From: a virus
Taxonomy: Duplodnaviria > Heunggongvirae > Uroviricota > Caudoviricetes
Length of the DNA stretch: 48,195 bases
IMG/VR virus record: IMGVR_UViG_2519899780_000006
Direction: 5' to 3' (one strand)
The position numbers were made by a program, and so were the translations under genes. The notes beneath the pieces were generated by a model. The model was not told where the DNA came from, ran no database searches, and was given only the letters and a program-made list of their open reading frames with translations. Within the stretch, counting starts at the first letter, position 1. Every line of letters starts with the position of its first letter. This document shows positions 1 to 43,872 of this stretch, in pieces.

Positions 1-582
1 TTACTCTGCAGGTGAAGTCGGCCACTCAATATCAGGTGCAGTTGATGTATCAACACGGTTCAGCAACACCCGATACTTTTTCCAGGCTTCCAGCAATGAG
101 GTTTCTTCCTCCGTTGCAATTTCCAGATCTGCAGCATCCTGAAGCGGCGCAATATGCTCACTGGCTACCTGCATCAGGTTGTTTTTTGTTTCTTCCGCCT
201 CCCGGATCCGGAACAGTTTTTCTGCTTCCGTATCCTTCACCCAGGCTGTGCCGTTCCACTTCTGAAACTCCCCTTCCGGCGATAACCAGGTAACATTTTC
301 CGGTAACGGACCGAGTTCAGAAATAAATAACTCGTCCCCTGACGCTACGTCATAAACCGTTTTACCCCGATGGTCTTCAACGAGATGCCACGATGCCTCA
401 TCACTGTTGAAAACAGCCACAAAGCCAGCAGGAATATCTGGTGGTGCAATATCGGTACTGTTTGCTGGCAGACCTGTATGAGGCGGAATATATGCGTCAC
501 CTTCACCAATAAATTCATTAGTTCCGGCCAGCAGATTATAAATTTTTATGGTCCGTGGTTGTTCACTCATTCTGAATGCCAT
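1..582 (-). CDS. tfa: Tail fiber assembly protein Tfa
   Basis: 193-aa ORF beginning [24 protein letters not shown], near-identical in my recollection to lambda Tfa; stop codon at window positions 1-3; follows stf as in lambda. Confidence 0.9.
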
Positions 583-3438: not shown

Positions 3439-4038
3439 TCAGAACTTATAACCGACACCCACGATGAAACCGTCAGTGCGCCAGTCGCCACTGCCGGAGC
3501 CTTCATAAGCAATATCAATGGCCACGGATTCGGTCGGGTTAAACTGCACGCCAGCCCCCCACGCCAGAGACGTGTTGCTGTGGCGACCGTCATCACTTCC
3601 GGTCAGCACGTCGTGCGTTTTCCCCTTGTTGTCAGTTACGCGGAGATAATCCCCGGAGAAAGTCGACACACGGCTGTAAGCCACACCCGCCATCGCATAC
3701 GCGCTGAACCATTCATTCACGCGCACAGACGGCCCCGCCATTACGCTGAACCAGCGGTTACGAACGGAATCTTCATGCCAGCGGGTATCGCTGTAGTGCG
3801 TTTTTTTCTCATCTTCAGCATTGGCATAACTGAAGGACGTAATCAGCCCCAGCGCGTCCGTAAACTCATAACGGTATTTCACGTTAATCCCGTTCAGATT
3901 ATCGCTGCCGGGAGCGTTCGTACGGGCATGAAGATACCCCGCGCTCAGTGTGGACTGATGTTCAGACGCCCATGCAGGCGCACCGGATACGGACAGACAG
4001 ATGGCTGCGGACAAAATGGCTGCACAAACTTTACGCAT
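3439..4038 (-). CDS. lom: Lom/Ail-family outer membrane protein
   Basis: 199 aa with N-terminal signal peptide (MRKVCAAILSAAICLSVSGAPAWA) and beta-barrel-like sequence ending in F; sits between J and stf as in lambda. Confidence 0.85.
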   Translation of the reverse strand: MRKVCAAILSAAICLSVSGAPAWASEHQSTLSAGYLHARTNAPGSDNLNGINVKYRYEFTDALGLITSFSYANAEDEKKTHYSDTRWHEDSVRNRWFSVMAGPSVRVNEWFSAYAMAGVAYSRVSTFSGDYLRVTDNKGKTHDVLTGSDDGRHSNTSLAWGAGVQFNPTESVAIDIAYEGSGSGDWRTDGFIVGVGYKF

Positions 4039-23895: not shown

Positions 23896-24518
23896 CATGG
23901 TGTTCACAGAACACGCAGTTACCGGACACATCAGTTTTCCATTCGCTCCCTGGCAGTACAGGCTTCCCCTCTGACGGGATAGCCTGAAAAAATAACACAG
24001 AAAATTATTTGTTATAATTAATATAACTTACTCAAAAAAAAGCGACGAGAAAATCAGCATCAACGAACAATAAGCGCCAATACGTGATAACAAATGGCAG
24101 CCATATTTATCTGCAGTATAAGCAATGGACAGGATAACCACACCAGAAACCGTCAGCATAAAATCCATTTGAACTTCCCCGGACAAAATCGACTCATCTA
24201 AAGATTTACAGCTCTTTTTATTATCAATATGTTAAAAGTAAAATAAACAGATGTTCAATAACACGAATACAAAAACGTGCTGAAATTCAATGAATCCATT
24301 TCTGTGTCATCAATTAATAGTGATAAACATCCGGCTTCTTCCACCATCGCACCGGACAGGCGACTATGAGGGGACAACGCCGCGCTCCGTTAACGCGGTA
24401 AACCCCGGTGTGTATCGTTTTTGATTATCCCCGCACACTCGCGCAGAGGAGTCTCCCTGTCGGGCTGCGGTCTCTGTTAATGCGGGGATACGGCGACAAT
24501 ACCGCGCATCAGCAAAAC

Positions 24519-24986
24519 TTATTTCAGGCACTGAGTGCGGATATAGTCCTGTGCCCCTTCCAGTTGCTTCTGCATCGTCATCAGCCGCTCTCTGAGGGTG
24601 AAATAATCCCGTGTAACGGTGTCTGCCAGTTGGGGGCCGGTTGCATTATCCACGCGGGCGGTGCCGGTGGCTTCACGCACGGGACCTGGACAGGTGGCGT
24701 TGATCCGCAGGCTGCGGTGACCAGCGGCAACGTCAGCGCGAAGAGTTTCATTTTCAGCTCTCGCATCGGCTAATTCCCTCGAGTATCTGGCATCAAGTGC
24801 AGCAACATCACGCTGGCGCTGCTGCATATCAGTAATGGTTGCATTTGCCAGCTCCAGCTCACTGACTTTTTTATCGCGCTGCTCTTTGTAGGTTATGGCG
24901 TTATCACGGTAATGATTCAGCCCCAGACTAAGCGCACCACAGGCCACCAGCAGGGCAATGATGACCACGCACAGTACGCGGTTCAT
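24519..24986 (-). CDS. Rz: Spanin inner-membrane subunit Rz
   Basis: 155 aa; N-terminal TM helix then NHYRDNAITYKEQRDKK and C-terminal FTLRERLMTMQKQLEGAQDYI, matching lambda Rz as recalled. Confidence 0.9.
   Translation of the reverse strand: MNRVLCVVIIALLVACGALSLGLNHYRDNAITYKEQRDKKVSELELANATITDMQQRQRDVAALDARYSRELADARAENETLRADVAAGHRSLRINATCPGPVREATGTARVDNATGPQLADTVTRDYFTLRERLMTMQKQLEGAQDYIRTQCLK
24581..24751 (-). CDS. Rz1: Spanin outer-membrane lipoprotein Rz1 (embedded in Rz)
   Basis: Embedded +1-frame ORF; start taken at MKLFALTLPLVTAAC (lipobox), followed by Pro-rich CVKPPAPPAWIMQP. Confidence 0.8.
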   Translation of the reverse strand: MKLFALTLPLVTAACGSTPPVQVPCVKPPAPPAWIMQPAPNWQTPLHGIISPSESG

Positions 24987-24987
24987 T

Positions 24988-25086
24988 TCACCACCAGCGT
25001 ATCTGACCGATGAAATAACCGGAGGCCATAATCACAAACACCAGCCAGATAAGAATGAACTTCCAGGTGGATAATTTTTCAGCCAT
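24988..25086 (-). CDS. Candidate 32-aa single-TM micro-protein translationally coupled to Rz
   Basis: MAEKLSTWKFILIWLVFVIMASGYFIGQIRWW; its TGA stop overlaps the Rz start (TGAAATG). Not in the ORF track because it is under 60 aa. Confidence 0.25.
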   Translation of the reverse strand: MAEKLSTWKFILIWLVFVIMASGYFIGQIRWW

Positions 25087-25156
25087 CACTCGAATCTCCC
25101 GAATCAGTTTGCTAAAATCAAACACACTTTCTCCTTTGACTTTTCCAGAGTCAGGA

Positions 25157-25196
25157 AACACAAAACCCCGCTTGCAGCCAACAAACGGGGTTTTTA
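25157..25196. terminator. Bidirectional terminator-like hairpin between R and Rz
   Basis: ccccg...cgggg stem (25166-25190) with a T-run after it on the plus strand and a U-rich tract after it on the minus strand. Confidence 0.4.
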
Positions 25197-25284
25197 CTTT
25201 TATTCACTTAGTTTTTGTCAGTTCGCAGGATTTCGTGTTATCCGTCCGTGTGAGCAAACCGCATTTTTCAGCAAAATATTCTGC

Positions 25285-25818
25285 TTATCTGTCAATTCCC
25301 CAGCACGCCAGCGCACTCTCCTGGTCGCGACGGGATACCTGACCGTAACAGTTGTTTGAGCGAATACGGCAGTCTCTGCCACCGTCCTTAATCCACCAGC
25401 GAATCGCCTCACACGCCCCCCTGCGATCGCCTGCATTAATTCGTTTATAAAACGTCGACGGGAAACACTTACCGGGACCAATGTTGTACGGACAGAATGA
25501 CGCGATCCCCGCTTTCTGGGGTTCGGTCAGTGGCACTCTGATGTTTTTCTCCACCCACGCCAGCGCTTTATCACGCTCAATGGCGTTAACCTGGTCGCAT
25601 TTTTCCTTCGACAACTTCATGCCCGGAACGACAGGTTTGCCATCCACCATGATGGCACCACGGCAGATGGTCCAGATACCTGCACCATCACGGTATGCCG
25701 TGGTGTGATTGCCTTCCTTTTCATCCAGAAACTGGTCGAGAATGTCAGGCGCAGGCGCACCAGCGGCAATCAGCGCCAGAACGGCAGCCGACAGGCCGTA
25801 TTTGATTTTGGTGTTCAT
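25285..25818 (-). CDS. R: SAR endolysin (T4-lysozyme-like muramidase, GH24)
   Basis: 177 aa; weakly hydrophobic Gly/Ala-rich N-terminus (YGLSAAVLALIAAGAPAP); catalytic E-x8-D-x5-T spacing (EGNHTTAYRDGAGIWT). Confidence 0.85.
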   Translation of the reverse strand: MNTKIKYGLSAAVLALIAAGAPAPDILDQFLDEKEGNHTTAYRDGAGIWTICRGAIMVDGKPVVPGMKLSKEKCDQVNAIERDKALAWVEKNIRVPLTEPQKAGIASFCPYNIGPGKCFPSTFYKRINAGDRRGACEAIRWWIKDGGRDCRIRSNNCYGQVSRRDQESALACWGIDR

Positions 25819-25860
25819 GGATATTTATCAGGATTTATCGGCAACAGATAACGAGCCAGC

Positions 25861-26667
25861 TTATATACGTCCTTTAAGATAAGTCAGTCCTGGATGAAAC
25901 CAGTAAGCCGGCACTTTTTTAAAGGGCGGATTATCAAAATCACGAAGAAGAGCCTCCCGCACAACTGCATCCTTGTCCGCACCACTGGCCAGCGCTTCAA
26001 TCTCAGCAGCTATCTGCAGATATCCCATGCAACGGCCAATGCGCTTCATCAGCCCCTGCTTTTTATTGTTCTTCAGGTAATCAATGGCAAATTCAATGAG
26101 CGCCTCACTATGCTGGTGCGATGGCGGTGTTAATTTCCCATTTTCTGAGATGGTTATTTTCCCGCCATCTCCGTATACAACAAAGGATGGCCGGTTACAC
26201 TCCCATTCCTGATCTTTATCAGGTGCAGACGCAATAAAATAACGTTTATTTCCTTCCTCTCCGGCACTTTTAACCGTAATGGAGTACTCAGACTGCAGAC
26301 AAGACGCCTCTTTTTCTGACCGCAGTGTTGACGGCGGCATCTTCAGAGAACCAGTAATTCTTCCCGGTAGCTTTCCTTTGTAGGTTATCAACACATCCTG
26401 CGCCTCTAAAATTATGGGGCGCTTTTCCGGCAACGGTTCGTTCCCTTCACATAACCCGGCAGCAACATCCATGAAAAACTGCTTCGCCTGCTTTTTCGCC
26501 TCAGCTTCGTAAAACTCCAGCGTGGCACCTTCAGTACGGTCAAGACTAATCGCCACATCTGGCAACAACAGTGACGGATACCCACCAATTTCCAGTGCCA
26601 CAGTAACAGTAATCTTATCCGGATAATTATTTATCCCTTTAACACCCAGTTCGTATTTTTTCTTCAT
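25861..26667 (-). CDS. Hypothetical 268-aa protein inserted between holin and endolysin
   Basis: Intact ORF with GGGGGAG RBS directly after the S stop; lower GC than flanks; no TM segment or signal peptide; no motif I recognise. Confidence 0.6.
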   Translation of the reverse strand: MKKKYELGVKGINNYPDKITVTVALEIGGYPSLLLPDVAISLDRTEGATLEFYEAEAKKQAKQFFMDVAAGLCEGNEPLPEKRPIILEAQDVLITYKGKLPGRITGSLKMPPSTLRSEKEASCLQSEYSITVKSAGEEGNKRYFIASAPDKDQEWECNRPSFVVYGDGGKITISENGKLTPPSHQHSEALIEFAIDYLKNNKKQGLMKRIGRCMGYLQIAAEIEALASGADKDAVVREALLRDFDNPPFKKVPAYWFHPGLTYLKGRI

Positions 26668-26671
26668 CGCT

Positions 26672-26887
26672 TTACTCCCCCCGCGCCGCCTTACGACGGT
26701 CCTCTCTGATTTTGAAATACAGGTTAGTCAGATATGTCAGCAGCCCAAACAGCAGACTCCCCAGCACGCCTATTGCCGCCCACTGAGACGGGGAAACCCT
26801 GTCCAGCAACTGCAGGAACCAGTAGCCCGTTCCCACCGCTGACGTGGTGTATGACACACCTGTTGTGATTTTTTCCATCTGGTACAT
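26672..26887 (-). CDS. S: Class II holin, phage 21 S21-type pinholin
   Basis: 71 aa from dual-start motif MYQM (ATG 26885-26887); [50 protein letters not shown] matches S21 as recalled. The ORF track extends it upstream to 26965. Confidence 0.85.
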
Positions 26888-26919
26888 ACCCCGTCTCCCG
26901 TTATCCGGAAGCTGACAAC

Positions 26920-26952
26920 AATAAAAAAAGCCACCAGTTAAGTACTGATGGC
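26920..26952 (-). terminator. Terminator-like hairpin upstream of S
   Basis: Imperfect 9-bp stem (26930-26952) followed on the minus strand by UUUUUUUAUUG. Confidence 0.35.
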
Positions 26953-27037
26953 TCTGATAACTCATGCAGGCATCTCAGACGACCCACTGACACTACCGGT
27001 GAGTTTAACGATACCTTCCATTTGACTGGCTCACTTT

Positions 27038-28891
27038 TTATGATGATGCCGGTGCATTTATCTCCAGCACCAGACTTTCTATCTCAACGCCATACGCTGC
27101 ATTTTTGGTAATATCCGTCAGCGTCAGCGCATTCAGCCCCAGTGTCAGACTGTCTTTTATGACCTGGAATGCCGGGCCAGCCACTCCATTCAGTTTCGGA
27201 GTAACCGTGGCACTGCCGGCGGTGAACACCAGCTCCAGCGTCTGCCAGTCGTTACTGTAATTCCCGAACTCGCCCAACTTTGTGTTTCCGGCTTTCTTGT
27301 GATGCATCAGATTCAGTTTGCCGTCTGTGGTCTGGGTGAAGAACGACATCAGGAACGGGTTACCAGTCCCGGTCATCGCCACGACGTCAGGTAACGCTAC
27401 ATCGGTATACAGATAAATTCCCAGACCGAACTGGTTGTTGGTCAGTGCGCCTGACAGTCGAAACTTACAGCTCAGTCTGCCACCCCGTGTCAGCAGGGAG
27501 ACTGCGTCATCCACCGGGCGCGTCAGGGACCAGGCTTTATTGCTCTGCTTGGTGATCTTAAATACACCATCTGACAACTGAATTCCGCCATTCTTAATGC
27601 TCCAGCCCTGCGCAGCAGCATCTCCGGCTGTCGGCAACAGGGAGATTGTGCGTACGGATGCATCTTCAGACGGCCCCGATGGCGTGTCGACGCCGGGCGA
27701 GGGTTTGATTTCCGGTGCCTTACCACTGATGAAGGCTGAGGTGCGCCCGGCTGCGTTCAGAATAGCGGTTGCCATACGATCCGGAATAATGCTCCTGCGC
27801 GCCCATGAACTGAAATGTGTCGGGCGGTTTGATGATACCTGGTTTCCATTCGTTCTCGATGCCGCACCGTAATATCCTGATGCCGGAATATCCGGATCTT
27901 CTGCCGGTGCGTTAGTGGCGGTATTGACGCCGTTACCGTCTGTCATGAAGGGCACAAAATAAACGCCCTCACTCTCCCTGTTTTTATACCCTCCGTACAC
28001 GGTGTCGTACTGGGTAGCGTATGTATTTTTCCAGTAATACGTCGTGTCACCACAAATCCACGGTACAACTGCAGCACTGCCGCCATGGCACTGCGCGTTA
28101 AATCCGGAAAGGTCAGTACGGAACTGCTTCAGCATGGCCGTGAACAGGTCCGGTTGCTGTGCGTAGGTGGCAGCGCTCATGTCAAATTCGCCCTGCATCC
28201 AGCACACCGCCAGCAACACATTTTTCGGGTTCTTCTGTAATGCAGCTTTAGTGCGCGCAATCAGGTCCTGATATAGCGGTTTACCCACACCCCAGCGTGC
28301 CGAATCCTGGCTGGCCCCCGCGTCCGCACTGAATGTCCCCTCCGCGCCCTGGGTGAATGCCGAACCACCACGACAGCATGGTACCAGCAGGATCCCAGCG
28401 TTATTCGGGATATACGGGAGCAGTTTTTTGGCAATATGTAAGCCCTGGCCGACACAGCCGTACTGCCCTTTGCTCAGGTCTGCCTTCGGATGATTCAGCG
28501 TACTCATATCCTGCACATCATGCAGACAGTGGTCAGCCGGGATGATGTCGTTATACGTACAACTCTCTCCCCCCGGAGTTACCGTGCTGCGGCGCGCCAG
28601 CTGTTTAATGCGCGGATCCGGAGCATCGTAAGAATCCGGTAACGGAAGCCCTTCACCGTAGGCCATGCCGTTGGACTGTCCGGCAAGCACAACCACGTAG
28701 AACCAGTCCGGCTCAGATGAAGGGCCGACCTGTGGATCTCCTTCAATAGCCACCGCCTGCATCAGTGTGTACGGCGTAATGGCAACCGGTCCGCCATATG
28801 GCTGCCAGCCCTCTTTCAGTTTGTGTGTCAGCTTTTCCGCAAGGTCTGACGGCGACGCCGCCCTGACAACATCATAGTGTTTAAATGCCAT
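27038..28891 (-). CDS. NanS-like sialate O-acetylesterase (SGNH hydrolase)
   Basis: 617 aa; GQSN motif (VLAGQSNGMAYG); occupies the slot between the tRNA cluster and S where Stx phages carry this esterase. Confidence 0.75.
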   Translation of the reverse strand: MAFKHYDVVRAASPSDLAEKLTHKLKEGWQPYGGPVAITPYTLMQAVAIEGDPQVGPSSEPDWFYVVVLAGQSNGMAYGEGLPLPDSYDAPDPRIKQLARRSTVTPGGESCTYNDIIPADHCLHDVQDMSTLNHPKADLSKGQYGCVGQGLHIAKKLLPYIPNNAGILLVPCCRGGSAFTQGAEGTFSADAGASQDSARWGVGKPLYQDLIARTKAALQKNPKNVLLAVCWMQGEFDMSAATYAQQPDLFTAMLKQFRTDLSGFNAQCHGGSAAVVPWICGDTTYYWKNTYATQYDTVYGGYKNRESEGVYFVPFMTDGNGVNTATNAPAEDPDIPASGYYGAASRTNGNQVSSNRPTHFSSWARRSIIPDRMATAILNAAGRTSAFISGKAPEIKPSPGVDTPSGPSEDASVRTISLLPTAGDAAAQGWSIKNGGIQLSDGVFKITKQSNKAWSLTRPVDDAVSLLTRGGRLSCKFRLSGALTNNQFGLGIYLYTDVALPDVVAMTGTGNPFLMSFFTQTTDGKLNLMHHKKAGNTKLGEFGNYSNDWQTLELVFTAGSATVTPKLNGVAGPAFQVIKDSLTLGLNALTLTDITKNAAYGVEIESLVLEINAPASS

Positions 28892-29114: not shown

Positions 29115-29341
29115 GTCCATAAGAAAGCCCCTCCGGAGAGGGGCTGGAGAGTGGCGCTATGTGCCATTGCATGGTGCCGGGTGCCTCCCGGTGAATTCAG
29201 TACCAGCACCTGAATCCGCGATTATCCCATATACCTACTCGCTGATTGCCCCTCCGCACAGGGGGATTCACCATGCCAGTTTCTTTTAACAAACTCCCCG
29301 CAAAACAGACAACTGTCAACCGTCTGAATTGTGAGACATTT

Positions 29342-29381: not shown

Positions 29382-29458
29382 TGGCGCGTTGTACTGGATT
29401 CGAACCAGTGACCGATTGCTTAGAAGGCAATTGCTCTGTCCGGCTGAGCTAACAACGC
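29382..29458 (-). tRNA. argO: tRNA-Arg (anticodon UCU)
   Basis: 77-nt cloverleaf folded by hand: acceptor GCGTTGT/ACAACGC, D stem GCTC/GAGC, anticodon loop CUUCUAA, T loop TTCGAAT, 3' CCA encoded. Confidence 0.85.
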
Positions 29459-29474
29459 AGGATACAGATAATGA

Positions 29475-29548
29475 ACCGCCTTCGGGGACCCGAACTCCGC
29501 GCAACCAGCTTCGAAGGCTGGCGCTCTATCCTGATGAGCTAATGGCGG
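29475..29548 (-). tRNA. argN: tRNA-Arg (anticodon UCG), slightly imperfect
   Basis: About 74 nt; anticodon loop CUUCGAA; T loop TTCGGGT; one mismatch each in acceptor and T stems; no encoded CCA. Ends approximate. Confidence 0.6.
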
Positions 29549-29555
29549 TATGTGA

Positions 29556-29631
29556 TGGTGGCCCTTGCTGGATTTGAACCAGCGACCTGGCGATTATGAG
29601 TCGCTCGCTCTCACCACTGAGCTAAAGGGCC
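29556..29631 (-). tRNA. ileZ: tRNA-Ile2 (anticodon CAU), ileX/ileZ-like
   Basis: 76 nt reading GGCCCTTTAGCTCAGTGGTGAGAGCGAGCGACTCATAATCGC...CCACCA, close to E. coli ileX as recalled. Confidence 0.85.
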
Positions 29632-34006: not shown

Positions 34007-34162
34007 TTACTCCTCAGGTTCGTAAGCTGTGAAGACAGCGACCTCCGTCTGGCCGGTTCGGATTCGTACCTCGCAGAGGTCTTTCCTCGTTACCAGTGCC
34101 GTCACTATGACGGTTAAACAGATGACGATCAGGGCGATTAACATCGCCTTTTGCTGCTTCAT
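34007..34162 (-). CDS. hokD: Hok/Gef-family type I toxin
   Basis: 51-aa ORF MKQQKAMLIALIVICLTVIVTALVTRKDLCEVRIRTGQTEVAVFTAYEPEE, hand-translated; absent from the ORF track (under 60 aa); matches HokD/RelF as recalled. Confidence 0.85.
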   Translation of the reverse strand: MKQQKAMLIALIVICLTVIVTALVTRKDLCEVRIRTGQTEVAVFTAYEPEE

Positions 34163-34420
34163 AGCCTGCTTCTCCTTGACCTTTCGGTCCGTAAGAGGCT
34201 AATCTCTATGTGTCGCATAGATATGGCCTCAGATTAATGTTAAGCGTCTTGCAGGACGCGTAATGTTAACTGGGGCTTTTCTCTATCTGCCTTTTGGTGT
34301 TCATGCCTGAGACAGATAGCCTCAAGCACCCGCAGTCATTCTACTTAACTAAGATTTCCCCGCAAACCGTTTTTGTCCGGCACAGTAAATATCCAACTAA
34401 ACCAATGGCGTTCGCTGTAT

Positions 34421-43306: not shown

Positions 43307-43872
43307 TTTATCCTCCATTGAGGTTACTGGTTGAGAATGGAGACCTCTCGTGACAGCGTGTGGTCGTGCGCCGGACACGGATAAGAATCCGGCACTGACA
43401 GTTTACTGAAAGGATATTTCCCTGAAAAGTCAGACCATAACGCGAAAGCGCACGGCGAGGTAGCTGGTTCATAGATAGCCTGTCGTTAAATTTTCGTCGA
43501 CCGTGCGCTTCCGGTTGTGGCAATCCGCGAAATGGCGCGGCGGTAAGTATGGCGGGGTTATTCCTTCCCCCGTTGAGGACACCGGGTTGTCAGGTTGGCC
43601 ATACGCTTAAGTGACAACCCCGCTGCAACGCCCTCTGTTATCAATTTTCTGGTGACGTTTGGCGGTATCAGTTTTACTCCGTGACTGCTCTGCCGCCCTT
43701 TTTAAAGTGAATTTTGTGATGTGGTGAATGCGGCTGAGCGCACGCGGAACAGTTAAAACCAAAAACAGTGTTATGGGTGGATTCTCTGTATCCGGCGTTA
43801 ATTGTTAACTGGTTAACGTCACCTGGAGGCACCAGGCACCGCATCACAAAATTCATTGTTGAGGACGCGATA

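Follow-up and report, generated by a model that had tools for sequence, protein, structure and literature searches.

A conserved cassette encoding a 45-residue membrane protein and a predicted antisense RNA in the R-Rz gap of a lambdoid prophage

The stretch of DNA analysed here (the window; 48,195 nucleotides of the IMG/VR virus record IMGVR_UViG_2519899780_000006) is a lambdoid prophage resembling Shiga toxin (Stx) phages, without stx, and carries the ileZ-argN-argO tRNAs, hok/sok, DicF and STnc100. Its late genes, including the lysis genes, are located on the minus strand. The gene R, encoding a signal-anchor-release (SAR)-type phage lysozyme (25285-25818, minus strand; PF00959, E=3e-24) with an N-terminal hydrophobic SAR-like segment that can be read off the translation, is separated from the i-spanin gene Rz (24519-24986, minus strand; PF03245, E=6e-48) by 298 bp, in agreement with the distance of about 300 bp given in the initial annotation. 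The homologues of R and Rz in Escherichia coli K-12 Qin, rrrQ and rzpQ, overlap and leave no gap, so the R-Rz gap is an insertion. It contains a small gene and two RNA hairpins that belong to a cassette of about 215 bp; R, the upstream neighbour, lies outside it.

The gene is an open reading frame (ORF) of 45 codons, MFDFSKLIREIRVMAEKLSTWKFILIWLVFVIMASGYFIGQIRWW (24988-25125, minus strand), which belongs to PHROG 6632. It starts with GTG (25123-25125), and the Shine-Dalgarno (SD) sequence GGAG (25131-25134, minus strand) is placed 5 nt upstream of this codon. The initial annotation had described a tiny hydrophobic ORF of 32 codons in the gap (24988-25086, minus strand). Such an ORF is present, but its ATG at 25086 is Met14, an internal methionine of the same frame, and the conserved ORF is the 45-codon one beginning at GTG 25125. 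A GTG, TTG or ATG codon is found 13 codons upstream of Met14 in every lineage, preceded by a conserved SD motif, AAGGAG or GGGAG, at the same distance, including the locus L011 with its unrelated leader. The 45-position profile of PHROG 6632 (function unassigned) is matched over its full length, residues 1-45 to positions 1-45, with E=1.2e-29. The members of the family share the motif M-x-D-[FI]-S-K-[LI]-[IV]-R-E-[LIV]-R-x-M-x-E-[KR]-L-x-x-W-[KR]-F, followed by a transmembrane domain (TMD) and a short tail, often RWW; the shared motif indicates that the N-terminal 13 residues are translated. PGAP calls exactly this ORF in some genomes and leaves the gap unannotated in most. Longer versions, of 57 amino acids (GTG 25161) and of 72 amino acids (annotated in LC567829), were rejected; they run through the hairpin described below and are not conserved.

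The encoded protein begins with an amphipathic segment, which is followed by one TMD and a short RWW tail; this bears out the earlier suggestion of a small membrane protein. The translation contains a single hydrophobic stretch of 20 residues (residues 23-42). The topology expected from the charge distribution is N-in, with the amphipathic segment probably in the cytoplasm. The TGA of the ORF (24988-24990) is followed by one base and then by the ATG of Rz (24984-24986). The stop codon, thought earlier to overlap the start of Rz, thus abuts it as TGA-A-ATG, with 1 nt between, and this junction, TGGTGGTGAnATG, is conserved in E. coli, Salmonella, Citrobacter and E. fergusonii.

The values of pS/pN calculated for the 45-codon ORF by the Nei-Gojobori method were 0.42/0.05 between the window and the E. 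coli prophage L008, 0.57/0.09 between the window and E. fergusonii, and 0.70/0.22 between the window and Salmonella. It is clear from these comparisons that the ORF evolves under purifying selection, with pN/pS of about 0.1-0.3. A profile search of 1.84 billion representatives found 40 family representatives at the 50% identity cluster level, and phages of Escherichia, Salmonella, Citrobacter and Pseudomonas carry proteins of PHROG 6632. Stx1a, Stx2a and Stx2c phages and H-19B also contain the ORF. When a 381-bp sequence spanning the gap was used as a query, 870 of 5426 complete E. coli genomes, i.e., about one sixth, matched it over at least 80% of its length; Stx phages such as H-19B are included, and the ORF is usually unannotated. 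Searches with the ORF against Pfam, NCBIfam and PADLOC gave no match, a Pfam holin family included, and no description of it was found in the literature on the peptide, the accessions, the PHROG identifier, the locus tags or small lysis-cassette proteins.

The extreme shortness of the ORF and the absence of a PGAP call for most copies of the gap would suit a chance ORF or a decayed remnant, with the hairpin serving as the terminator of R; the initial annotation had likewise considered a remnant. The comparison with related lysis cassettes that it proposed shows the ORF to be conserved, and this refutes such an explanation, to which we leave hardly any probability: pN/pS is 0.1-0.3 at pS values of up to 0.7, 40 representatives of the family are found and its range extends to Pseudomonas phages, and the hairpin travels with the ORF and not with R. 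It seems highly probable that the gene of the cassette and its RNA structures are real.

The larger of the two structures is a hairpin at 25153-25206 (both strands) with a core stem-loop at 25162-25194, flanked by an A-tract and a T-tract. Its 9-bp G+C core is lengthened by A/U pairs to about 13-14 bp, the tails read UUUUGUGUUU (minus strand) and UUUUUACUUUU (plus strand), and the plus-strand fold has an energy of -21.9 kcal/mol (z=-3.2). A G+C-rich stem-loop with a U-tract on each strand, as reported in the initial annotation, is thus confirmed, and by its sequence it is an intrinsic bidirectional terminator. The second hairpin, TGACT-CTGGAAA-AGTCA (25137-25153), is small and abuts the SD sequence. 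It is found at the same place in all lineages with different sequences (CCTTG/CAAGG, CCxCATG/CATGAGG, CGTTA/TAACG and CCTTCTG/CAGAAGG); the copy in the window does not align in register with the consensus.

In the inner stem of the terminator and in the SD-adjacent hairpin the sequence varies among lineages while the pairing is kept. RNAalifold applied to the homologues retained an 18-pair hairpin. Covariation was assessed in an alignment of 14 diverse cassette heads against 500 shuffles and slid controls. Pairing was possible in 87.6% of cells compared with 77% in the shuffles (0/500), and 11 of 20 pairs were changed on both sides with 5.2 expected (0/500), every slid control being lower. The terminator hairpin contributed 7 of 13 pairs changed on both sides, with 92% of its cells paired, and helix 1 of the second hairpin 4 of 7. 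As it is conserved and covaries across homologues, the hairpin at 25162-25194 is not a product of chance. A covariance model built from the heads (R1) has one full-length match in the window, at 25123-25201 on the plus strand (80.6 bits). The only other match (minus strand, 30.5 bits) corresponds to this same palindromic hairpin. The model also recognises copies outside the training set that precede other small transmembrane ORFs in the loci L122 and L016.

The hairpin, the T-tract, the second hairpin, the SD sequence and the ORF travel together. In alignments between unrelated contexts, homology sets in precisely at the A-tract 5′ of the hairpin, which forms the 5′ boundary on the lysis strand, and ends at the stop codon of the ORF; no conservation was found upstream of the hairpin between contexts. 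The bidirectional terminator noted earlier in the lysis cassette is therefore a real hairpin, but instead of being an independent terminator it is a fixed part of the mobile cassette. At least six contexts were found. In E. coli, Salmonella (a P22-like phage), Citrobacter and E. fergusonii the cassette lies 1 nt upstream of i-spanin genes. It is located between baseplate genes in Brunovirus SEN34, in Rac-SA53 and in two E. coli prophages (L008 and L009), in the tail region of the Pseudomonas siphophage YMC11/02/R656 and of a second siphophage, beside a T7_gp14-like gene in the virion-gene operon of another phage, and alone among type II toxin-antitoxin (TA) genes, upstream of a terminase gene. 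Since it also occurs between baseplate and tail genes, the cassette is not specific to spanins, and the dedicated regulator of lysis or spanin function envisaged in the initial annotation is not supported in that form by the baseplate, tail, virion-gene and TA contexts. Even so, the endolysin-spanin junction is a favoured landing site.

The same contexts bear on the view that the ORF is a plain accessory lysis gene without any antisense RNA, whose protein, co-translated with Rz, tunes the spanin or the holin in the way of P2 LysA or Mu releasin. Under this explanation the hairpins would act on the late mRNA only, as an attenuator, an RNase processing or stability element, or a mask of the SD sequence. 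It is attractive that the stop codon stands 1 nt before the i-spanin ATG in four independent cassettes with two spanin families (PF03245 and DUF2514) and four endolysin types, that several families of small transmembrane ORFs ending in (I/V)(R/K)WW gather at this junction, and that hairpin 2 can mask part of the SD sequence on the sense strand in several lineages. The presence of the cassette in baseplate, tail and virion-gene operons and by TA genes, with no lysis gene near, is not accommodated, and we consider this explanation unlikely, though it retains an appreciable share of the probability.

Other families of tiny transmembrane ORFs (phrog_4906, phrog_1115/4493 and phrog_12997) are found at the R-Rz junction behind the same hairpin head, and several of the junction families end in (I/V)(R/K)WW-TGA-N-ATG. 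The R-Rz gaps of L010/L021 (Sakai Sp14 ECs_2740, ECs_5740), L011, L020 (Sp9 ECs_5722) and L132 (Sp15 ECs_5741) contain one to four different tiny ORFs with a single TMD each, of the kinds phrog_1115/4493, phrog_4906 and a 28-residue ORF ending in IRWW. The gap ORFs of the Sp14 type and of L011 are placed behind the same hairpin head, and Sp9 and Sp15 instead carry ant and a 48-residue ORF. It appears from these arrangements that the junction is a hotspot for small membrane ORFs.

Some loci contain multiple copies of the cassette: two in L016, three in L122 and an array in L011. In L016, an E. fergusonii prophage, a second complete head (3679-3910) with hairpin 2 CGTTA/TAACG, an SD sequence and the antisense TGCTAGACT precedes a 50-residue phrog_12997 ORF ending in VKWW-TGA-T-ATG. 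This phrog_12997 cassette is situated directly upstream of the PHROG 6632 cassette, and the two form a tandem pair between the endolysin and spanin genes. In L122 (2150-4890), three heads within 2.3 kb are interleaved with ParE, RelB/YafQ and HicAB-type TA genes. Each of them is preceded by a near-identical repeat of about 350 nt with a promoter-like TTTACA-17-TATCAT, GTTTAC repeats and a further terminator; this repeat may be another small RNA gene.

The cassette can be compared with morons in the sense of Juhala and Hendrix. It is extra DNA between genes that are adjacent in relatives, as follows from the overlap in K-12 Qin and from the baseplate insertions elsewhere. It does not have its own promoter upstream and a terminator downstream; the terminator is upstream of the ORF, and there is none between the ORF and Rz. 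A moron serving the lysogen, through superinfection exclusion or another kind of conversion, would be expressed outside the late operon, and the hairpin would merely insulate it. The moron-like placement, the movement among unrelated phages, the small membrane product, as in many exclusion proteins, and the TA and defence-type genes adjoining the cassette in L122-L124 agree with such a role. We nevertheless regard it as improbable, as the interval from the hairpin to the ORF lacks a sense promoter and none is conserved further upstream, expression of the ORF in the lysogen would be prevented by the terminator immediately before it, and PADLOC gave no match.

On the strand opposite to the ORF, a sigma-70 promoter is predicted at 25090-25118 (plus strand), inside codons 3-12 of the ORF, with the -35 element TCGAAT (25090-25095), a 17-nt spacer and the extended -10 element TGCTAAAAT (25110-25118). 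A transcript initiated there would start about 7 nt downstream of the -10 element, at the complement of the start codon, and would give a cis-antisense RNA of about 75-80 nt (25123-25201, plus strand; start at about 25124, end at about 25200), the 5′ end of which is complementary to the start codon and SD sequence of the ORF. The predicted order in the RNA is the start-codon/SD complement, hairpin 2, an A-rich linker and the terminator, and the same architecture, with a predicted length of 75-84 nt, is found in 14 lineages.

The motif TGnTAnnnT, read on the opposite strand of codons 3-6 (ORF nucleotides 5-13 or 8-16), occurs in 13 of 16 cassette heads, whereas its background frequency at the 5′ ends of ORFs is 3/1129. 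It is retained over different residues (DFSK, DISK, NSSK, YFSK, EFIK, DYIK and ESSN), and L127 has a perfect TGATATAAT. Other families of small transmembrane ORFs behind the same head (phrog_12997 and phrog_1115-like) have a -10-like hexamer in the same position. Within the cassette, the block that varies least is GAT-(T/A)TT-AGC-AAA, the complement of which, TGCTAA(A/T)AT, is an extended -10 element. Among the 12 motif-bearing heads of the PHROG 6632 family, the wobble base of residue 4 is always T and that of residue 5 always C, Ser5 being always AGC, and these invariant wobble positions correspond to A-11 and G-14. The G+C-rich Pseudomonas phages, too, keep GAT TTT AGC. Of the 11 motif-bearing heads of this family with Arg at residue 12, 10 use the rare codon CGA and one, L122, uses CGG; CGA provides the TCG of the -35 position, 17 nt away.

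The synonymous sites of codons 2-22 are conserved to an unusual degree. In the window's four informative comparisons, pS was 0.08-0.39 in codons 2-22 versus 0.65-0.97 in codons 23-45, and it reached 0.55 in codons 2-22 across the remaining divergent pairs. Synonymous divergence was lower in codons 2-22 in every divergent pair, 2.5- to 9-fold in the comparisons with the window and down to 1.4-fold elsewhere. At the other end of the predicted RNA, the conserved block takes in the A-tract upstream of the stem, which on the other strand makes up a TTTTnGCTTTT tail. The frozen 5′ synonymous sites, the retained -10 motif, the invariant wobble positions and the A-tract in the conserved block are hard to explain by the protein or the late mRNA alone, and because of these four observations the hairpin was assigned to a predicted antisense RNA; it is most simply explained as the putative terminator of a cis-antisense RNA. 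The accessory lysis gene alternative leaves unexplained the A-tract in the conserved block, and also the frozen wobbles of codons 3-6 and the rare CGA of Arg12 while residues change.

Several results weigh against the antisense RNA. A consensus promoter scan did not flag the site, because its -35 element matches the consensus at only 3/6 positions, and the predicted -35 is weak in general (TCGnnn, 2-3/6). The extended -10 motif is missing in two of the 14 family heads (L129 and L131), and the phrog_1115 head (L010) has only a TATACT hexamer there. The low 5′ synonymous rate could instead stem from mosaic recombination, mRNA structure in the start region, or conservation of an internal SD sequence and Met14. 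The hairpins can be assigned to no strand by the counts of G-U and A-C combinations (12 versus 7), so that the antisense strand is not favoured, as the accessory lysis gene alternative would have it. The Hfq-CRAC lists of small RNAs (sRNAs) of O157 Sakai contain nothing in R-Rz gaps; Sakai is without this exact ORF and has the same hairpin head with other ORFs (ECs_2740, ECs_5740, or ant and a 48-residue ORF), and antisense RNAs of the predicted kind need not bind Hfq. Further, the genes of classical type I toxins have promoters of their own, whereas here no such promoter is seen and a terminator lies upstream instead; and the ORF has no homology to a known toxin, holin or defence protein in Pfam, NCBIfam or PADLOC. 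On balance, the existence of the cis-antisense RNA, which rests on comparative sequence evidence, seems slightly more probable than its absence.

Other candidates were tried and rejected. A plus-strand promoter proposed by the consensus scan, CTGACC-18-CATAAT (25003-25032), is not conserved in the homologues, and neither is a second candidate -10 element, GATAAT (25070-25075). HnrS (EcOnc10-12) was considered as the RNA of the gap, but it maps downstream of Rz, and no EcOnc peak is present in any Sakai R-Rz gap. The scan found no sigma-70-like site on the lysis strand at 24300-27200. A search of Rfam with 24300-25900 at E<=10 revealed no antitoxin RNA family, and no antisense or sRNA family reached the threshold in the region, the best being the rimP leader with 29.9 bits against a gathering score of 47.

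Our overall reading, which we hold with about even confidence, is that a cassette of about 215 bp moving between phage late operons encodes a 45-residue inner-membrane protein and an antisense RNA of about 75-80 nt. The antisense promoter would be built from codons 3-6 of the ORF, and the RNA would run over the SD sequence and hairpin 2 and stop at the conserved hairpin. As there is no sense promoter in the cassette or conserved upstream of it, the protein would be made only from late transcripts that read through the hairpin, which in the phage of the window would mean Q-antiterminated late transcription. By the logic of type I TA pairs, SymR/SymE and P22 sar/ant, the antisense RNA would base-pair with the region where translation of the ORF initiates and thereby repress it. 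The protein would then be absent from the lysogen and, at the beginning of the late phase, would stay below a threshold level. With leaky and early translation silenced in this way, the protein would appear late and insert into the inner membrane. In the window, the WW codons and the stop codon (UGGUGGUGA-A-AUG) may also supply an SD-like sequence and translational coupling for Rz.

The same hairpin with a good sense-strand T-tract is found amid essential baseplate or virion genes in SEN34 (L106, 2418-2500) and in L127 (2421-2500), and the phages concerned are not known to use Q-type antitermination. Termination in the sense direction must be leaky there, because the downstream genes would otherwise be starved of transcript.

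What the protein does is speculative. It may act as a helper or timer of lysis by perturbing or modulating the inner membrane late in infection, and we consider a membrane-active helper of lysis a possibility with rather less than even chances. A variant of the proposed scheme, compatible with it, is a dual start in the manner of holin and antiholin, in which the 45-residue form (from GTG) and the 32-residue form (from Met14) would oppose each other, their ratio being set by RNA structure or by the antisense RNA. Met14 is retained in 13 of 14 aligned family lineages (the exceptions are L122, with a Met pair one codon earlier, and P0059, with Ile). A GGAG-like motif is placed 6-9 nt, mostly 9 nt, upstream of it in 12 lineages (a weak AAGAG is found in L121, and the motif is absent in L129), and the predicted antisense RNA would cover the upstream start only. 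Met14 may thus serve as a second, internal start giving a 32-residue product. However, requirements of the protein by themselves may account for the conservation of Glu10 and Met14, and the 9-nt spacing is at the long end for an SD sequence; two opposing forms appear to be a rather improbable refinement.

A broader proposal is advanced only tentatively, with somewhat less confidence than the overall reading. The hairpin, hairpin 2, the SD sequence and the first six codons may constitute an undescribed antisense RNA gene used as an exchangeable head before unrelated families of tiny tail-anchored membrane proteins (PHROG 6632, 12997 and 1115-like, many of them RWW-ended). These would make up a new, widespread class resembling type I TA systems in late operons, silent in the lysogen, freed only by antiterminated late transcription, and acting as lysis timers or helpers or as late exclusion factors.

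The description of the locus is thus corrected to a conserved mobile cassette that encodes a 45-residue membrane protein and has the "bidirectional terminator" as an integral, covarying part. Even without the antisense RNA, it represents a conserved, unstudied family of small proteins at the endolysin-spanin junction. If the antisense RNA is real, it would represent a new family of antisense-controlled small membrane proteins in phage late operons, would show how morons can be kept silent in lysogens without a repressor, and could explain part of the variability of lysis timing and of phage and toxin release among Stx phages. The module has only 215 bp, and synonymous mutations can remove the predicted promoter and leave the protein unchanged.

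The remaining genes of the lysis region are all on the minus strand. The holin of the lysis cassette, separate from the 45-codon ORF, is a class II (S21-type) holin (26672-26887; PF04971), and the o-spanin gene Rz1 (24581-24766; PF06085, E=2e-20) is embedded in Rz, the downstream neighbour of the ORF. Between the holin gene and R, an ORF of the DUF1327/YdfR family (25861-26667) encodes 268 residues, the first 100 of which correspond to DUF1327/YdfR and the remainder to other function-unassigned PHROGs (phrog_1085). Relatives have versions of 103-330 residues or none at this position, which is a second variable slot of the lysis cassette. The 88 nt between the R stop codon and the hairpin (25197-25284, minus strand) are conserved together with R in E. 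coli and, in part, in Salmonella (L012, 3752-3925). They contain CTGAAAAATG and a small palindrome, GGATAACA(C)GAAATCC, and lie outside the mobile cassette.

Just downstream of Rz, the region 24330-24518 is 94% identical to the segment of Sakai Sp9 that bears HnrS (EcOnc12), and the plus strand of the window probably encodes there (at about 24370-24445) a copy of HnrS, a 66-nt Hfq-dependent sRNA that is transcribed against the late operon and represses hha (PMC13502914). Elsewhere in the window, matches at the Rfam gathering level are sok of the hok/sok type I TA system (34160-34331, minus strand), DicF (43647-43698, plus strand), STnc100 (29115-29305, minus strand) and IS009 RNA (41-239, minus strand); the three tRNAs are located at 29382-29631.

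By analogy with described systems, the cassette appears to be an uncharacterised element related in kind to type I TA loci, to sar-like antisense control and to morons. Details of P22 sar, a small antisense RNA inside the "ant moron", were reportedly given by Liao et al. in 1987. The element predicted here would likewise be a short cis-antisense RNA within an insertion in a lambdoid late operon, with a factor-independent terminator at its end and complementarity to the ribosome-binding region of the controlled gene. Rfam holds a sar model, and there is no sequence or Rfam match to sar in this locus. The target here is a 45-residue membrane protein instead of an antirepressor, and the predicted promoter is placed inside the first codons of the target. 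The "ant moron" belongs to the P22 late operon (PMC2629481).

Type I TA loci such as hok/sok, ibs/sib and zor/orz also encode small hydrophobic proteins of less than 60 amino acids, occur in tandem or multiple copies, as do the cassettes of L016, L011 and L122, and are carried by mobile elements (PMC2887945). The product of the ORF is such a small hydrophobic membrane protein; a promoter of its own, typical of the toxin gene, is not seen. Known type I toxin families (Hok, Ldr, Ibs, TisB, ShoB, Zor, Fst and others) gave no Pfam or NCBIfam match with the ORF, and its conserved N-terminal soluble segment of 22 residues is unusual among these toxins.

P2 LysA and Mu gp25 ("releasin") are small non-essential membrane modulators of lysis encoded by spanin genes' side, lysA being located between the endolysin and i-spanin genes of P2 (PMC9239132). 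They share with the ORF a small membrane product and a position in or beside the lysis cassette, next to spanin genes. The PHROG 6632 family, unlike them, also occurs outside lysis cassettes. In releasin the TMD is N-terminal and accompanied by a cytoplasmic domain, whereas the TMD is C-terminal here, and no match to DUF2730 was found in Pfam.

The "convergent" sRNAs of enterohaemorrhagic E. coli prophages, AsxR, AgvB and HnrS (PMC4104026, PMC13502914), resemble the predicted RNA in their size of 51-66 nt, in their intrinsic terminators and in being transcribed against the lambdoid late operon, and the HnrS-like region of the window is 500 bp away. In contrast to it, they act in trans, do not overlap the start of a small ORF, and none maps to the R-Rz gap.

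The type I pair hokW-sokW of the Stx2 prophage Sp5 differs from the cassette in its membership of the Hok family, in having a promoter of its own and in its location away from the late operon. The membrane toxin HokW rises on induction and aids lysis and phage release (PMC8621323), a role in a Shiga-toxin-type prophage of the kind proposed here. The predicted layout is the same as that of SymR/SymE (PMC1891008), where the antisense RNA gene overlaps the 5′ end of the ORF and its translation-initiation region.

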